From: Promethearchaeota archaeon
Lineage (GTDB): Archaea; Asgardarchaeota; Lokiarchaeia; Sigyniarchaeales; SOKP01
Direction: 5' to 3'
DNA length: 64,000 nt
Assembly: GCA_048940925.1 (NCBI GenBank)
Contig: JBHLOC010000005.1
Location: 66,687-130,686, forward strand
Positions 5,061-20,252 of the stretch are shown piece after piece; the first letter of the stretch is position 1, and each line of letters starts with the position of its first letter. Below the pieces are notes generated by a model. The model ran no database searches. It had not been told where the DNA came from and worked only from the letters and a program-made list of their open reading frames with translations. The position numbers and the translations under genes were made by a program.

Positions 5061-6113
5061 CTAGATTACCTGTTCAATTGGAATTTTCTTAATTGTATGA
5101 AAAGCAGCAGTTAGACATTTTTCTGCATCATTCACAATAGTATTGATTATATTGGATACACTCTCTACTCTTGTAATAAGTCCAATACTTTGCCCTATAT
5201 ATACAGTACCATCTTCAACATTACCTTCATAAGTCATTTCCAGTTCTGCTAGTTCCCTTTCTACATTGGACATCGAAGTCTCTCCAGCTCTTTTTTCTTC
5301 TTTACTTTTGACAAGTTCTTGGTTTTCAGCCCTTGTATTCTTCCATACCCTCGCAGGTCCAAAAATTCCAGTTTTTAGTTCAGTGTCAGAAGCAGTGGAA
5401 TGAATTACGACATTTTTATATTTTTCATGAAATTCACATTCTTTTGAAGCTATAAATCTGGATCCCATAGCAATTGCTCCTGCACCCATAGATATGGCAG
5501 AAGCTAAGCCTTCACCCGTGGCAAATCCTCCAGACGCAATTATAGGAACATTCGGTAATTCTTTTCTTATCTGTTGTAAAAGAACTAAAGTACTTACATT
5601 ATCATAGGATTGATGTCCTCCACCTTCAGTTCCAGTAATAATCAACCCATCGACTCCACTATTAACCAGTTTTTTAGCGAGATATGATGAAGGAGCAACA
5701 TGGAAATGCTTAATATTTGAACCACTCTCCTTTAATTTTTCAAAGTGTTTATTATAAATCATTCTTGGGGAACCTGCACTTGTAACTATATAGATACACT
5801 GTTCTTTTATTTTTGGATTTTCCATGATAAATCTTGGAAGTTGTCTGCACAATTTTATTGCATCTGGCTGTAATCTAGCCGTTCTGATGTTAAATCCGAA
5901 AGGCTTATCAGTATGTTCAACAACGTACTCCATACTTTTTTTCATTTCATCAAGAGTTATAGTTCCATGTAAAGTAACATGACTTAAAACACCTAATCCA
6001 CCTGCTTCAGATACGGCAACAGTTAATTTAGTAGTATAAAAAGGGCCCATTGGAGCACTTAATATTGGATGTTTAATCCCAAGCATTTTTGTAATATTCG
6101 TTTCGATTACCAT
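5061..6113 (-). CDS. Nitronate monooxygenase / FabK-like flavin oxidoreductase
   Basis: 'PILSAPMG', 'VSEAGGLG', 'GTEGGGH', 'IASGG' and 'MGSRF' motifs. Confidence 0.88.
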   Translation of the reverse strand: MVIETNITKMLGIKHPILSAPMGPFYTTKLTVAVSEAGGLGVLSHVTLHGTITLDEMKKSMEYVVEHTDKPFGFNIRTARLQPDAIKLCRQLPRFIMENPKIKEQCIYIVTSAGSPRMIYNKHFEKLKESGSNIKHFHVAPSSYLAKKLVNSGVDGLIITGTEGGGHQSYDNVSTLVLLQQIRKELPNVPIIASGGFATGEGLASAISMGAGAIAMGSRFIASKECEFHEKYKNVVIHSTASDTELKTGIFGPARVWKNTRAENQELVKSKEEKRAGETSMSNVERELAELEMTYEGNVEDGTVYIGQSIGLITRVESVSNIINTIVNDAEKCLTAAFHTIKKIPIEQVI

Positions 6114-13415: not shown

Positions 13416-15311
13416 TTAAATTCCAAGTGTTTTTGTTTCACGATTTCTATATAAGCATAATGATCCACTAAATAAGAGTGCCATACTAAAGAAAACAAGA
13501 ATTGATATAAAAAGATATTCTCCAGTGGTCTGTGACACTATAATATGCCCCAATGAAATACTTTCTATAGAAAGGATATCCATTGCAAAAAGTGAGATTA
13601 AAATAAATGAAAACATTGAAGAAATTATTTGAACAATCCCAATTATTAAATTTATATAATATATCATTCTAACTTTAGGTTTTTTTAATTCAATAATTCG
13701 ACCAATACCAACATCAATTGCAATCTCGTCTTTATTGACTTTTTTTATGAAAAAATAGACTAACTCTTTAAGAGGAATTATATCAAAAAAAACAGAACCA
13801 ATCGCAAAAACACAAAAAAATATTAAAAATCTTGATAAAACTGAGCTATAAATTGATGAGAATCCTTGGATGGGAGAAGATAAAACTCCAAAATTGTTTA
13901 TAGCCCATATGGAAATTCCTACAAGAATTATGGCAAAGAATTTTAATCCTGCTAATGTTAATACAATTGAATGGCGATCTGTTATCGTTAGTAAATAATA
14001 TGTTATTCCAATAATAAAAATTATCAATCCAAGAATCACAGCATTTGGATTGAGAATAAAAGCTAAAATTAAACAACTAGATCCAACAATTACTGGTAAA
14101 TAGGGAAAAAAAGGTGCTTTAAAAGGGCGATCTAATTCCTTTCTTTTATATCTCAAGCTAACTGCGGCAAAATTTACGAAAGCTAGTCCAAAGAAATAAA
14201 TAAAAGTTGTAATATTTGCTGTAAATCCAATGTTAGCAAAAATAATTGCTAAAATTGTAAATATAATCGTAGCTATTGTAGTTATTATTAAAACTAGAGT
14301 TGGAACATTTGTTTTTTTACTTACTTTTAATAGCTTTTCTGATACATAATGATCTCTTGCAAGAGCATGCAATACTGCTACAGCAGATCCTAATGCAGCA
14401 TTCATCGCTATAAAAGTTGAAATAGTTGCTGCAATTCCCATCAACAAATATCCTGGAAAGCCTAAAATATCATTCATTACTAATGCTAGCAATATTGGAG
14501 ACTCTTCTAGCCTTGTTGATTCATTGCCAATATTGATCATTACTACGACTGTAATAGACAGATAAATAAACAAAGTTATCAATATGGCAAAAATATTTGC
14601 TTTAGGAATGTTTTTTGAAGGATTTTTCAAGCTTGCATTCAAATAAGCTAAGTTGGAGGTAATACTTGTAAAAAAAATAAATAACAATGAAAACATTAAA
14701 ATAACACTAAAGAAATTGGTTTTAGAAATGAGAAAATTTGGATCATAGCCAGAGATATTGGTAATAGGAGCAATAAAGATACCCGAAACAATAAAGATTC
14801 CAAATATCATTAATAAAATAATCGTTAGAGAAATAAGAGCTCGTAATGCTCTTTTTTGAGTCCTAAAAACAACAATCGCTGTAAAAAGGATTGATATAAT
14901 TATAATTGCAATTGTAATAAATAAGTTTTTCATCAAGGGAAAAGGGAAAAAAGCTTCAATTACAATCGCAAATGCTTGAGCTGAAAATGAGAAAGATGCT
15001 ATGCTCGCAAACCATAAAAAAAACCCAATTATGAAAGCTAAGAATCCTCCTAATCCTTCTTTACTAAAATTATATTCTCCACCAGAGATAGGTAGGCTGG
15101 TGGATAATTCACTAAAGTTGAGAGCAGTTATAAATATTAAAATTCCTCCTAAAATTAGACTTATTAAAACACCGGACTTCGCTTCATTAATAGCGGTTCC
15201 TAATAGAACAAAAATAGAGCCTCCAATTCCACATCCAATTCCATATAAAATTCCTGTACCTAATCCAACAGTTCTGGTTGGAGGTTTGATTTCTTTATCT
15301 TTTTCAGTCAA
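13416..15311 (-). CDS. APC-family amino acid permease with extra C-terminal TM segments
   Basis: 'GIGGSIF', 'FSELSTSLPISGG', 'ALARD' and 'RPFKAP' motifs; about four additional TMs after the core. Confidence 0.85.
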   Translation of the reverse strand: MTEKDKEIKPPTRTVGLGTGILYGIGCGIGGSIFVLLGTAINEAKSGVLISLILGGILIFITALNFSELSTSLPISGGEYNFSKEGLGGFLAFIIGFFLWFASIASFSFSAQAFAIVIEAFFPFPLMKNLFITIAIIIISILFTAIVVFRTQKRALRALISLTIILLMIFGIFIVSGIFIAPITNISGYDPNFLISKTNFFSVILMFSLLFIFFTSITSNLAYLNASLKNPSKNIPKANIFAILITLFIYLSITVVVMINIGNESTRLEESPILLALVMNDILGFPGYLLMGIAATISTFIAMNAALGSAVAVLHALARDHYVSEKLLKVSKKTNVPTLVLIITTIATIIFTILAIIFANIGFTANITTFIYFFGLAFVNFAAVSLRYKRKELDRPFKAPFFPYLPVIVGSSCLILAFILNPNAVILGLIIFIIGITYYLLTITDRHSIVLTLAGLKFFAIILVGISIWAINNFGVLSSPIQGFSSIYSSVLSRFLIFFCVFAIGSVFFDIIPLKELVYFFIKKVNKDEIAIDVGIGRIIELKKPKVRMIYYINLIIGIVQIISSMFSFILISLFAMDILSIESISLGHIIVSQTTGEYLFISILVFFSMALLFSGSLCLYRNRETKTLGI

Positions 15312-15382: not shown

Positions 15383-16837
15383 TTATGATTTTTCTAAATG
15401 AAAAAATCCTGAAATTAAAGATAATCCAGCGCCTATTAGTAAAAATATACTCATTGTCAAGGTATTAGCATCACCAAAATCTATAAAATTAAAAAATACT
15501 CCAATTACCCATATAATGAAAAAAATTCCAATACCTATTAAGATCCCACCAAAGAATTTTGAGGTCCTATAAATAGCAGATAATATTTCTAACCTATGTA
15601 TTCGACTCTCTTTATCTCTAATTTCCTTTTCTTGATTTTCTAATTCCGCTTTTAATTGTTGGAGAATGAGTCGAGAATCATTAGTACTAGTTTCAATGGC
15701 TTCCTTAGCCTTTGTTAATTTTTCATGATCTGTTTCCATTTGCTCCAATTTTTCTGTTAAAGCATTGAGTCTTTCTTCTCGTTCAAGATATTCCATATTT
15801 GTTATTTCAATTTTTTGCTTTAAATCTTCCATCCTTTTTTCATTTGCTTCAATTAAACTCTCTTTCTTACTTATTTGCTCGTTTAAGTTTTCTACGGTAT
15901 CATTTACTTCTTGAATTCGAGATTCGATGTCAATTAATTGTTGTTGTTTATCAGACAACTGTACTTTATATTTAGCAAGAAGTTCTTCATATATTTCTCT
16001 TTGTTTTTCCATTTCAGGAAAGCCTTCATGATATTCTTGAATTTTTTGCTCAATCTCTTTAATTCTTCTCTCTTTTTTCTCAATTTGTTCTGTTAACAGC
16101 TTCTTTTCTTCTTCTTTAGCTTCAATCTCATTATTCGAATGCTCTACTTCAATTTTGTTTTTACTTATTGAAACTCTTAAAGTTTCATTTTCTGCACGTT
16201 GACTTTTTAATTTCTTCTCTAAAGCTTCTGATTCTTCTCTCTGTTTATCAAGTTTAATTTCATCTTCTTGTATTTCTTGATTCAATTTTGAAATCCTGTT
16301 TCGAAGTTCTTCTTGAGTAGCAACTTTTTCTTTTACTGAATCTGTTAGAACAATTAAATCTACTTGTCTACTTTCATACGTCTTTACTAGTTGTTCATTA
16401 TTTCTCAGAAGTTCTTTATACTCTTGTTCTAAATTCTCTTTACTTTCTTTAGTTATTTGTAATCTATCTTCTAGATTACCCATTTCCTCCGTTTTCTTGT
16501 TATATTTCTCTTCTAACTCCGAGATGGTTTTTTCTATAGCAGCAAGGTATTCTTCTTTATCATCAATTTTTTTTGTTATGTTATCAAGTTTTATTTGAGC
16601 GTTCTTGATATCCTCATCAATTTCCGCTACTTCCTTTTTGCTTATCTCTTTTTCTTCAACATTCTCTCCATCTGTCATCGTCTCTGAAATATCCTCAATT
16701 GTATTTTCGAATGTCCTTAATTTTTTGTCAATTATATCTCTTGAATTTTTTGCTTTAGATAAAAATTCTTTATCTACTTTATCTGTTTCCTTTTCCAATT
16801 TACTTTCTTTTTCTTCATCATTGAATTCTTCTGTCAT
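15383..16837 (-). CDS. Long coiled-coil protein with C-terminal two-TM membrane anchor
   Basis: About 420 aa of E/K/Q-rich heptad sequence followed by two hydrophobic helices; no signal peptide. Confidence 0.8.
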   Translation of the reverse strand: MTEEFNDEEKESKLEKETDKVDKEFLSKAKNSRDIIDKKLRTFENTIEDISETMTDGENVEEKEISKKEVAEIDEDIKNAQIKLDNITKKIDDKEEYLAAIEKTISELEEKYNKKTEEMGNLEDRLQITKESKENLEQEYKELLRNNEQLVKTYESRQVDLIVLTDSVKEKVATQEELRNRISKLNQEIQEDEIKLDKQREESEALEKKLKSQRAENETLRVSISKNKIEVEHSNNEIEAKEEEKKLLTEQIEKKERRIKEIEQKIQEYHEGFPEMEKQREIYEELLAKYKVQLSDKQQQLIDIESRIQEVNDTVENLNEQISKKESLIEANEKRMEDLKQKIEITNMEYLEREERLNALTEKLEQMETDHEKLTKAKEAIETSTNDSRLILQQLKAELENQEKEIRDKESRIHRLEILSAIYRTSKFFGGILIGIGIFFIIWVIGVFFNFIDFGDANTLTMSIFLLIGAGLSLISGFFHLEKS

Positions 16838-17210
16838 CTTATTGCATTTATAAATATTGGATTTATAATATTTTTTACCTCATTTAGAATTAGAATTTTT
16901 AATTATAAAGTTTAGTTTTTGCAGTTGCAAATTTGATTAAATAGGTGTCGATTTAAATAATCGATCATTTTTATATAAACACTTCTAATAAATGTCTTAT
17001 GTAATATCTGAAATACAGATATTTAAATTTTAATTTTTATTAAAATATTTCTCTGGAAAAAATCAGAATCTTAAATAAGTTTATAAATGATAATTGTTTT
17101 ATCTTTCATTTTTTTAAAAATAGAATAATTTTTTGCGTTTTTTCTTAATTTAATAATATATATAATATATACCTGTATCTGTAGTTTGCTTTCGAAGATT
17201 TTGTAAAATT

Positions 17211-18170
17211 TTACTTCCCTTCCAAAAAGTCAATAACTTCCTCATAGGATGTATCTGGCATAGGTCCAAAAAATTCTACTTTTAATGCTCCAACCGCATT
17301 CGCAAATTTAGCAGTTCTAATTAAATCCCAGTTATTTAAGAAACCTATTATAAATGCACCTCCAAATGAGTCTCCTGCCCCAGTTGGGTCAATCTGATTG
17401 ACTTTATAACCTGAAACTTTGATAGGTTCTGAACGTTGTGTAGAAAAAACCATGGAACCTTCTTTACCCTGTTTTAAAACTACTAATTCTGGACCCATTT
17501 CAAGTAACCTTTTGCATGCGTTTATTTCACCGCCAATCTCCGCTAATAGTTCAGCCTCTTCTCCACTAGGGAGCAAGACCGTTGATACTTCAAGTACGGG
17601 TTTGCAAATTTTTAGAATTTTATCTAAATCAAGCATTTCTGGTCTAAGATTTGGATCAAAAGTGACAACTACATCCGGGTTTATTTTTTTTGCTAACCGA
17701 ATTGCTTTATAACATGCTTCCCGAGATGTTTCGCTTATTGAAAGAGCACTTCCCATTATATGTAGAATCTTCACTTCAGAGAAATAAGATTCTCTCACAT
17801 CTTTAGGAGATGTCTCTCCAGCAGCACCTACAGCAAAAATAAACTTACGAGATCCATCAGAATTATATTGATTGAACGCAATCCCTGTAGTTTTTTCTTT
17901 ATCGATACGTATTTGGGAAATATCTACTCCATCTCTTTTTAATTTATCGATAATACACTTGCCAAACATATCATCACCAATTACACCTATAAATCCTGTT
18001 GTAAAACCAAAGTGTTTTCCCATTCGAGCTGCAGAATCAATGAAAATAATTGGGGCGCCACTTGGAAAAGGTCCTCTATAAATAGCTCCAATTGTACCAT
18101 GCGAAATATCTACTTCAGGACGTATAAACTCAACTAATAATTCACCCAAAGAAATTATATTAGGACACAT
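17211..18170 (-). CDS. PfkB-family sugar kinase
   Basis: 'PSGAP', 'FDPNLR' and 'DPTGAGDSFGG'. Confidence 0.92.
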   Translation of the reverse strand: MCPNIISLGELLVEFIRPEVDISHGTIGAIYRGPFPSGAPIIFIDSAARMGKHFGFTTGFIGVIGDDMFGKCIIDKLKRDGVDISQIRIDKEKTTGIAFNQYNSDGSRKFIFAVGAAGETSPKDVRESYFSEVKILHIMGSALSISETSREACYKAIRLAKKINPDVVVTFDPNLRPEMLDLDKILKICKPVLEVSTVLLPSGEEAELLAEIGGEINACKRLLEMGPELVVLKQGKEGSMVFSTQRSEPIKVSGYKVNQIDPTGAGDSFGGAFIIGFLNNWDLIRTAKFANAVGALKVEFFGPMPDTSYEEVIDFLEGK

Positions 18171-18247
18171 TTTATAAACTCAACCTAATTATTTACACAG
18201 ATAACTATTACAAAACAAAGTGTTTTACTACTTATAAAAAACAAGAT

Positions 18248-19204
18248 TTATTTTGTAAATTTTTGTTTGTATGATTCAATTACATTAGATATCTCATTCA
18301 TATGAATTTTTAATTCCTTAGGACTAGTTTCTTTTAATTTATCAAAATTTCCAATAATCTCTTTTAACTCCTCAATCCAAAGGTTCATAAGGATTTCTTT
18401 TTCTTTATTTTTACAAGCATTTTTTATTTCATTTCCAATCCATTCTTTAAGTGTTTCAAATATTTGTTTCTTGAGTACATCTACTGAAATTTTAACTAAA
18501 TCCTGTTGACTCTTAAGATCATCTAATATTTGTTTTACTCCAATTTTATATTCTGAATGCTCATTTTCCAATTTTTTTAATAAATCACTTTGAACTTCTT
18601 CTTTCGTATCAAATTCGTCTTTTAATCTGTTTAATTCTGTTAAGAGATCTTCATTAACATTCCTTAAGTTGTCTCTAATTGCTTGGATATTAGATTCAGT
18701 AGAATTATTATATCCCTCTAATTTTTCACTAACATCTTTAAACTTTAAATTCAAAATCTCAGTAATAGATTCAAATTTTCCCTCCGAGTTCTGATTAATT
18801 TCTCTAAATTTATCATTTAATTCTTGATCAAAAATATTTGTTATGTCTTCAATTTTTTTATTAAGATTATCTATTTGACTTTTAAGTCTCTTATCTAATT
18901 GAACGATTTGATCATCGAATTTCTTCTCAAGTTTAGTTATTCGCTCATCAAATTTTTGATTAAGTTTATCAGATTGATCCTTTGAACTTTGTGTAAGTTT
19001 ATTAATTAGATTATTTATTTTTTGATCATATTTATTTAAGAGATCATCTGTTTTTTTTTCTACTTCATTAATTTGCTCATTTACACTTTTAATTAATCTA
19101 GATGTCTGGTCATTAAACTTCTGACCAAAATTTTTTAATTGCTCCTTTAAGTTCTCAAAAGTTTTAATCGATATAGTTCCATCTGATTTGGAAATGTTAT
19201 CCAC
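18248..19204 (-). CDS. All-helical coiled-coil protein
   Basis: 318 aa of K/E/N/D-rich amphipathic repeats, almost no Pro or Gly; 41 bp downstream of the Rab-like gene. Confidence 0.7.
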   Translation of the reverse strand: MDNISKSDGTISIKTFENLKEQLKNFGQKFNDQTSRLIKSVNEQINEVEKKTDDLLNKYDQKINNLINKLTQSSKDQSDKLNQKFDERITKLEKKFDDQIVQLDKRLKSQIDNLNKKIEDITNIFDQELNDKFREINQNSEGKFESITEILNLKFKDVSEKLEGYNNSTESNIQAIRDNLRNVNEDLLTELNRLKDEFDTKEEVQSDLLKKLENEHSEYKIGVKQILDDLKSQQDLVKISVDVLKKQIFETLKEWIGNEIKNACKNKEKEILMNLWIEELKEIIGNFDKLKETSPKELKIHMNEISNVIESYKQKFTK

Positions 19205-19244
19205 CTTTTTTTGTGAGTGATTCTTAAATATTCATTTTTTTGAG

Positions 19245-20252
19245 TTATGAGAAATTTATTAGATCTTTTTCTATTTTCTCTTGTCTCAATTTATCACTAA
19301 TTATTGACAGTTCATTTTCTTCTCTAATTAGTTTTTGTAGTAAATTGAAATTACTTGCAGATTCTTTCTGGGACGTTAATAATAAATTTTTCATCCCACT
19401 AATTGTTTCTTCAACCGATTTGATATGATATTTCTTTAAATGTGTAATAGCTTTTCTAAGTTCAGATAAATTTATTAAAAACACATCAAAGCAATCACTT
19501 TTTTGTTGTCCTACTTTATTCAATTCTTGCTGAATAAATTCATAGTATTTTAATTCTGTATCCTCAGGTTCAGTAACAGATTTATATTTAACTTTTTGTT
19601 TTGATTTTATCTTTTTTAATTCTGATTCAATGGAATTAATATCTATTAACTGATTTTTTAATGAGTTTTCAGTTTTTCCAATAAATTTTAGGAAATCATT
19701 TGCAGTATTTTCAGATATAATATCTGGATTTAAGATTTCTGCTCTCTTTAAAAATGTATAAATTAACAGTTCAAAACAATCTTTAACATTTTTACTAGTT
19801 TTAGCTGAAGTTAATATCGTATTGTCTTTTTCTGTTAGGAAGCTTTTTATTATATTAATTAACCCTTTATTAGCAGAACACTCATCTAATTTATTTCCAA
19901 TAAACAATGAAATACATTTCTCAGAATAATACCTCATTTTTTCTAAAAATTCCTTTTTGAGATTTTCTAATGTTTTTTTTGGTTGAGTTAAATCAAAAAC
20001 TAAAAGGACTGCATCAGCATTGGAATAATGAGCGGTATTAAGGGGATTAAATGACTTTTGACCGCCTAAATCCCATATACTTAATTTAATGGATGTTTCT
20101 TTTAATTGGTAGTCTTTTTTACTAATAGAACTGCCGATTGTGGGCATATATGTCTCAGGAATTTCTTTATCTAAGAAAGCATTTACGATGGAAGTTTTAC
20201 CAACTTCACCTTCACCAAGAATAACAATTTTTAAGTTAATTCTAGTTTCCAA
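19245..20252 (-). CDS. Rab-like small GTPase with C-terminal helical/coiled-coil extension
   Basis: G1 GEGEVGKT, G2 PTIG, G3 WDLGGQ, G4 NKLD, G5 TSAK, followed by about 165 extra residues. Confidence 0.88.
   Translation of the reverse strand: METRINLKIVILGEGEVGKTSIVNAFLDKEIPETYMPTIGSSISKKDYQLKETSIKLSIWDLGGQKSFNPLNTAHYSNADAVLLVFDLTQPKKTLENLKKEFLEKMRYYSEKCISLFIGNKLDECSANKGLINIIKSFLTEKDNTILTSAKTSKNVKDCFELLIYTFLKRAEILNPDIISENTANDFLKFIGKTENSLKNQLIDINSIESELKKIKSKQKVKYKSVTEPEDTELKYYEFIQQELNKVGQQKSDCFDVFLINLSELRKAITHLKKYHIKSVEETISGMKNLLLTSQKESASNFNLLQKLIREENELSIISDKLRQEKIEKDLINFS

Follow-up and report, generated by a model that had tools for sequence, protein, structure and literature searches.

A two-gene operon of a Rab-like GTPase and a helical partner protein, restricted to one family of Asgard archaea, beside an older coiled-coil and permease gene pair

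Asgard genomes encode dozens of Ras-like GTPases. Those described as Rab-like, Thor-Rab and the MK-D1 set among them, share with the eukaryotic Rabs a Ras-superfamily G domain with all five G motifs, have no C-terminal cysteine, and are reported to lack a C-terminal extension (Tran et al. 2024, PMC10933270). Small GTPase genes of MK-D1 are generally not located in operons with candidate regulators, which makes the matching of Asgard GTPases to their partners difficult (PMC10933270). In MglA-MglB and other prokaryotic Ras-like GTPase operons the switch is encoded beside, and inherited with, a dedicated partner, and Rab/Arl GTPases with their coiled-coil effectors associate a small GTPase with a long helical rod protein. 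The locus described here shares both of these features. It lies at positions 15,383 to 20,252 of a 64,000-nucleotide stretch of DNA from a Promethearchaeota archaeon (assembly GCA_048940925.1, contig JBHLOC010000005.1, positions 66,687 to 130,686 of the forward strand), referred to below as the window, in whose coordinates all positions are given. On the minus strand it encodes a Rab-like small GTPase with a C-terminal helical tail, an all-helical protein called here partner protein H, a pfkB-family sugar kinase and a membrane-anchored coiled-coil protein, followed by an amino-acid permease. This locus probably holds two gene pairs that are independent of each other and adjoin in this lineage alone, one comprising the GTPase and its cognate rod partner, the other the coiled-coil protein and the permease. 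The GTPase and partner genes constitute a previously undescribed operon, confined to a single family of the Asgard archaea (Promethearchaeota), and the partner is an orphan protein; no paper describing the GTPase tail, the partner or the anchored coiled coil was found in the literature.

The genes of the GTPase and of its partner are a conserved pair that has been inherited, moved, duplicated and lost as a whole. In the window the GTPase gene (19245..20252, TTG start, 335 aa) precedes the partner gene (18248..19204, GTG start, 318 aa), which begins 40 nt past the GTPase stop codon; its GTG start is supported by the conserved N-terminus of the orthologues. Both are real genes, as are the pfkB and coiled-coil open reading frames, each being kept in more than 100 related genomes. 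The informative loci number 20, taken from 11 genera other than that of the window and from a divergent branch of the latter. Each of them has an orthologous GTPase (320-349 aa, with a matching tail layout) immediately followed in the same orientation by a partner homologue of 170-251 aa, and none of the other window genes is found within 10 kb of the pair. The spacing of the two genes is between -14 and +36 nt at 13 of these loci and between 120 and 297 nt at the remaining seven; overlaps of 4-14 nt are frequent, and the pair is translationally coupled in many lineages.

Profile searches gave the same picture across the family, sampled by 134 genomes of 13 genera. The C-terminal domain of the partner (profile of the last 119 residues) is present in one copy in 103 genomes and 12 genera, and the GTPase tail is found in 109 genomes. 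Nothing credible resembling the partner domain was detected in the other six families of the class, the single marginal match (E 1e-5) falling in a 484-aa frame of family f2, and among 265 other genomes of the phylum the tail had no real match, two hits being at chance level only. The two distributions match at the level of both genomes and contigs. Where a tail is found without a partner, the GTPase lies at a contig edge or beside a run of N (G006, G136 and G137; G139 was left out), and the only genome in which the two are separated, G022, has them at a contig end. Genome G081 carries two copies of both genes, each GTPase adjoining its own partner, and both genes are absent from the near-complete genomes G072, G074 and G080. 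A GTPase partner is identified here by strict co-inheritance across about 100 genomes, and the two proteins make a directly testable pair. Neither the tail nor the partner is found outside the one family, and neither has a detectable relative in eukaryotes, so the operon has little direct bearing on eukaryote origins.

Synteny within the genus of the window was dropped as evidence of linkage. The GTPase, partner and coiled-coil genes do lie together in nearly all of its genomes, but a tblastn placement of 24 window proteins on 20 related loci gave a single collinear block. About 25 kb are collinear within the genus, with the genes for a splicing-endonuclease subunit, a sirtuin, a PHP protein, the permease, the coiled coil, pfkB, protein H, the GTPase and a flavin reductase, and because the entire neighbourhood is conserved in this way its order says nothing on which genes belong together. 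At 14 coiled-coil loci of genomes that have the pair on another contig the arrangement is flavin reductase, a nitronate monooxygenase-like gene (NMO), pfkB, coiled coil, permease, PHP and sirtuin, and the GTPase-partner pair is missing. The old neighbourhood thus exists in other genera without the pair, which therefore moved in as a unit; on the simplest reading it was inserted beside pfkB, between pfkB and the NMO and flavin-reductase genes, before the main clade of the genus diversified. The pfkB gene itself (17211..18170; Pfam PfkB, E 4e-47; the NCBIfam tagatose-kinase-like model scores 252 bits, under its cutoff of 420) lies near the coiled-coil gene in other genera where the pair is not present, and is missing from between the partner and coiled-coil genes of G003, which are only 400 bp apart. 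It is a bystander of the older neighbourhood and does not belong with the GTPase and its partner. The surroundings of the pair in other lineages are of a different kind: a convergent gene for a 380-aa protein with a C-terminal 4Fe-4S dicluster domain lies downstream of it in about 12 of the 20 loci, outside the main clade (L057-L076), and upstream of it in other genera are found a divergent thiolase gene (7/20) or one for a CDP-alcohol phosphatidyltransferase (3/20). The 4Fe-4S protein and the thiolase, the only further neighbours of the pair to show conservation, are read as remnants of its ancestral position.

The coiled-coil protein (15383..16837, 484 aa) is separated from pfkB by 373 bp. 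Its hydrophobic periodicity of 3.5 is that of a heptad repeat and extends over about 400 aa (residues ~20-420) with one proline, and its only two hydrophobic segments, read as transmembrane, occupy residues 431-449 (15491-15547) and 460-478 (15404-15460). The N-terminus is acidic and carries no signal-peptide-like segment, so that a coiled coil after pfkB with a two-transmembrane end and no signal peptide, as read earlier from the nucleotide sequence, is indeed what is encoded. Within the genus the protein is 72-90% identical over 484-486 aa, above pfkB and equal to the permease, which is unusual conservation for a coiled coil. Its landmarks are a conserved N-terminal motif, a G-F-P-E-M break at residues 272-276 and a juxtamembrane motif before the first transmembrane segment; the invariant blocks are R-Q-V-D-L-I-V-L-T-D, G-F-P-E-M and the juxtamembrane Q-E-K-E-I-R-D-K-E-S-R-I-H-R. 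A profile run on 135 family genomes found the gene full-length and in single copy in 121 of them, including all 36 of high quality, and three further families of the order have weaker full-length homologues that share its N-terminal and juxtamembrane motifs and its hairpin.

Downstream of it, after 71 nt, lies the gene of an APC-superfamily amino-acid permease (13416..15311, minus strand, 631 aa, TTG start; Pfam AA_permease, E 5e-33). The assignment is based on Pfam PF00324 and PF13520 (114.9 and 107.7 bits) and on a polytopic profile with at least 14 hydrophobic segments; a C-terminal extension of about 200 residues contains hydrophobic segments beyond the usual 12-helix core, and the homologues of families f3 and f4 (656-661 aa) share them. 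The gene immediately after that of the coiled coil encodes an APC permease of about 630 aa at all 19 main-clade loci, at 13 of the 14 other loci of the family, and also in families f3 and f4. A soluble TPR protein of 602-635 aa takes its place directly behind the coiled-coil homologues (458-570 aa) of family f2 (L035-L037, L039, L040, L042). The coiled-coil and permease pair is much older and wider than the GTPase-partner pair. Its rod, cytoplasmic and anchored by the hairpin, may attach to the transporter in the role of a scaffold or regulator.

The sequence-only reading had joined the GTPase, the partner and this 484-aa protein into one GTPase-coiled-coil tether, in which the hairpin-anchored rod is the membrane anchor and is reached by coiled-coil pairing. 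The genes do share one orientation and a span of 5 kb, both in the window and in most of the genomes of its genus, and in G003 only 400 bp separate the partner gene from that of the coiled coil; both sets are present in most family genomes, and the layout recalls that of tail-anchored golgins. This closeness is, however, part of the general collinearity and results from the single insertion of the pair into an older neighbourhood. The coiled-coil gene and the pair are on different contigs in all of the approximately 52 genomes outside the genus that hold both, as well as in five of the window's own genus (G012, G085, G098, G099, G105); G061 and G122 have the pair with no coiled-coil match, and G072, G074, G080 and the whole families f2-f4 have the coiled coil without the pair. 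Profile comparison by hhalign finds no similarity between the tail, the partner and the 484-aa protein (probability <1%), and their homology was rejected. A common tether of the three proteins is therefore highly improbable. That reading had itself named the absence of linkage in relatives as the outcome that would count against it, and this is the outcome for the coiled coil, which lies near the pair in one sub-clade of one genus only; of the proposed system the adjacency of GTPase and partner stands, and the third component falls away. The likeness to golgins holds for the layout, with a long cytoplasmic coiled coil and a C-terminal anchor, although the anchor is a two-transmembrane hairpin and not a single tail anchor. 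It does not extend to homology, none being found to golgins or known Rab-binding domains, nor to a genomic association with a Rab or Arl, as the genes are unlinked outside the one sub-clade and independently distributed. It is a chance gene order, peculiar to one lineage, that underlies the golgin-like interpretation of the anchored coiled coil, and nothing functional ties one pair to the other.

The GTPase belongs to the Ras superfamily by its G1-G5 motifs and Ras-type fold. Pfam Ras (PF00071) covers residues 8-166 (E 4e-30; 104.9 bits against a cutoff of 21.6), and the motifs are G1 GEGEVGKT (13-20), G2 T38, G3 WDLGGQ (60-65), G4 NKLD (120-123) and G5 SAK (149-151). The best PDB matches by both sequence and fold are Rab7, Rab1, Rab5 and Rab10, over the G domain only, with Foldseek TM-scores of 0.74-0.83 against Rab chains when normalised to target length. 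By similarity the protein is a Rab-like GTPase, and it is probably hydrolysis-competent; the catalytic glutamine of G3 is retained in the 33 aligned family GTPases, with asparagine in its place in one sub-clade. It differs from Rabs in having WDxGGQ and not WDTAGQ at G3. Read by eye against the consensus, TIG, IWDxxGQ and LVFDLT are like RabF1, F2 and F5, while SFNP and HYSNAD are unlike F3 and F4. As in the described Asgard Rab-like proteins, there is no C-terminal cysteine: the chain ends in ...LINFS without a prenylation motif, its last cysteine is residue 254, and no cysteine of the tail is conserved in the 33-sequence family alignment. Lacking the prenylatable C-terminal cysteine, the protein departs in this respect from the Rab family proper.

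In contrast to those described proteins, this GTPase has a conserved helical tail of 160 aa and a conserved operon with a partner. An intact set of G motifs, a helical tail (put at about 165 aa) and the absence of a prenylation site had been recognised from the sequence alone, and all are confirmed by Pfam, the motifs and the AlphaFold2 (AF2) model. The latter, built from the 33-sequence alignment with a predicted local distance difference test (pLDDT) score of 79.5, shows a G domain at residues 1-174, helices at 183-217, disorder at 217-231 and a hairpin of two helices at 232-274 and 280-334. The protein was accordingly divided into the G domain (residues 1-175, 19728-20252), a small helical subdomain (176-217, 19602-19727), a disordered linker (218-231, 19560-19601) and the helical hairpin (232-334, 19251-19559), all on the minus strand. 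Two parts of the tail are conserved: one is the short stretch of helix that follows the G domain, the other the hairpin, the turn region of which, K-K-T-P-I-x-S-L, is conserved outside the main clade of the genus. A polybasic membrane-binding linker was ruled out, the net charge spanning -7 to +7. No relative of the tail was found in Pfam, NCBIfam, the PDB or the Atlas, and the search of solved structures with the tail and with the partner C-domain gave no credible match, one hit being a designed protein and the others having E >0.06.

No tail-bearing orthologues were found in the sister families, where the nearest G domains sit at the C-terminus of proteins of 318-340 aa with an N-terminal Roadblock/LC7 domain (Pfam, above threshold; for example L091:4253-5215, L092:845-1864, L093:4056-5009 and L096:3839-4831). 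These Asgard Roadblock-GTPase fusions differ in architecture from a GTPase with a separate helical partner, and the helical-hairpin tail is a way of extending a Rab-like switch distinct both from prenylation and from Roadblock fusion. A sub-clade of the tailed GTPases (L028:6689-7981 in G013; P0018-P0026) is 425-579 aa long and has GGN, not GGQ, at G3; in these proteins the helical tail is followed by tandem Pro/Lys-rich repeats, with units like K-P-K-P-E-x-K-P-L-E-V-K-A, and by a conserved terminal module of about 45 aa.

The partner protein H had been read as an all-helical protein of 318 aa encoded 41 bp downstream of the GTPase; apart from the spacing, which is one nucleotide shorter, this is what the AF2 model shows (pLDDT 83.5), with a single helix at residues 13-264 and then three short helices. 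It is composed of an N-terminal rod of hendecad repeats (residues ~13-196, 18617-19168) and a conserved C-terminal helical domain (197-318, 18251-18616), both on the minus strand. The rod consists of 11-residue repeats with a sharp hydrophobic period of 3.65 and about three apolar positions per repeat; no tandem repeats were found in the DNA that underlies this array. It is the least conserved part of the protein, varying in length between about 50 and 200 residues across lineages, and in several genera, where the proteins are only 170-190 aa long, it is cut to about 50.

This periodicity raises the alternative that H is an amphipathic-helix membrane or lipid binder of the apolipoprotein, perilipin or phasin kind, which would carry the GTPase to a lipid surface. 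Pfam Apolipoprotein (PF01442) matches residues 15-188 with E 5e-13, weak Phasin, Perilipin and YtxH matches accompany it, the 11/3 periodicity is strong, and genes of lipid pathways, for the thiolase (7/20) and the CDP-alcohol phosphatidyltransferase (3/20), stand upstream of the pair in other genera. The Apolipoprotein score of 49.7 bits is, however, far under the curated gathering cutoff of 90, and the likeness is one of repeat periodicity only. With about 3 of 11 positions hydrophobic, the narrow apolar seam is, on a direct reading, more in keeping with a coiled-coil rod that self-associates than with a face that binds lipid. The repeat region, moreover, is the least conserved part and is reduced to some 50 residues in several genera, and no basic charge is conserved in the GTPase linker. 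It is thus quite unlikely that H is a lipid binder.

The conserved core of H is formed by its C-terminal 120 residues, with a mean column identity of 62% across the family and the invariant residues D, I, E, L, W, P and I, none of which is an arginine. An exhaustive profile search of 1.84 billion representative proteins found the domain in only 67 clusters, all of proteins of at most 318 aa, always at the C-terminus and never in a fusion. Natural fusions of GTPase and partner were likewise not found, the longer tail proteins carrying the Pro/Lys-rich repeats instead. The domain has no relative in Pfam, NCBIfam, the PDB or the Atlas; its look-alikes in the ESM Atlas, with scores of 0.85 or less, are uninformative.

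A compact, conserved 120-aa domain may also be expected of a GTPase regulator, an exchange factor or GTPase-activating protein, in place of an effector or structural partner. Prokaryotic GTPases and their regulators, MglA and MglB for example, are typically encoded in tightly coupled operons, and the retention of the catalytic glutamine of G3 indicates that the nucleotide cycle matters. Sec2/Rabin8 are coiled-coil exchange factors, and H would resemble them, by analogy, in being entirely helical and probably a dimeric rod that acts on a Rab-like GTPase, although it has no sequence similarity to them. Against a regulator, the C-domain has no invariant arginine, asparagine or glutamine that might act as a catalytic finger, and signatures of roadblock, longin, TBC and DENN domains are absent; H also differs from MglB in being all-helical in the AF2 model and in having no Robl_LC7 match. 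Co-variation with the C-domain is, furthermore, stronger for the tail hairpin than for the G domain, and the sub-clade in which the glutamine is replaced by asparagine still keeps the partner. The role of a regulator is accordingly unlikely for H.

We infer that the products of the two genes bind each other, the C-domain of H docking on the tail hairpin of the GTPase to give a stable helical bundle. This mode of contact is favoured because the two are conserved helical modules without other partners, both of which changed together in the main clade, and because the pairwise distances of the C-domain are followed more closely by those of the hairpin (r 0.88; partial r 0.62 with the G domain controlled for) than by those of the G domain (partial r 0.40 with the hairpin controlled for), a correlation which, obtained from 30 related sequences and uncorrected for phylogeny, is suggestive only. 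The rod of H would self-associate, and the complex would then be a rod bearing nucleotide-switchable G-domain heads that recruit or release a target. Septins offer an analogy and no more, as they too carry a helical extension after the G domain, possibly for hetero-association into rod-like assemblies, although the G domain here is of the Ras/Rab type and not of the septin type. A more specific form of this picture, in which the nucleotide-switched rod, assembled through hairpin and C-domain, acts as a spacer, tether or cytoskeletal element with its length tuned by the gain and loss of hendecads, and represents an archaeal, independently evolved counterpart of the pairing of a Rab switch with a coiled-coil effector, is very unlikely to be correct as it stands. 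Such a switched rod might still meet membrane-anchored rods, the 484-aa protein for instance, in cells.

Several points weigh against two independent pairs with H as the cognate rod partner of the GTPase. The hairpin and C-domain correlation carries the limits given above. The C-domain is modelled with lower confidence than the rest of H (pLDDT 61-76) and has no known fold relative, and it could equally be a regulator. In view of the TPR neighbour in family f2, the link of coiled coil and permease is not universal. Unlinked genes, finally, are still compatible with contact between the GTPase-partner pair and the coiled coil, and the two may meet in cells, as most family genomes carry both.

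Some minor features of the locus may be added. PADLOC defence models did not match the GTPase and gave only low scores to the helical proteins, on the coiled-coil parts of ZorA, LmuB and JetC, so that identity with a known anti-phage defence system was rejected. No RNA family was found in the intergenic regions. A run of six T lies directly past the partner stop (18225-18247) and none past that of the GTPase (19205-19244), which fits, weakly, a single transcript finishing after the partner gene, the genome having only 29% G+C. The NMO gene, at 5061-6113 in the window, is about 14 kb from the GTPase here and adjoins it in most genomes of the genus; its displacement reflects a rearrangement of local extent, peculiar to this genome and those most closely related to it.

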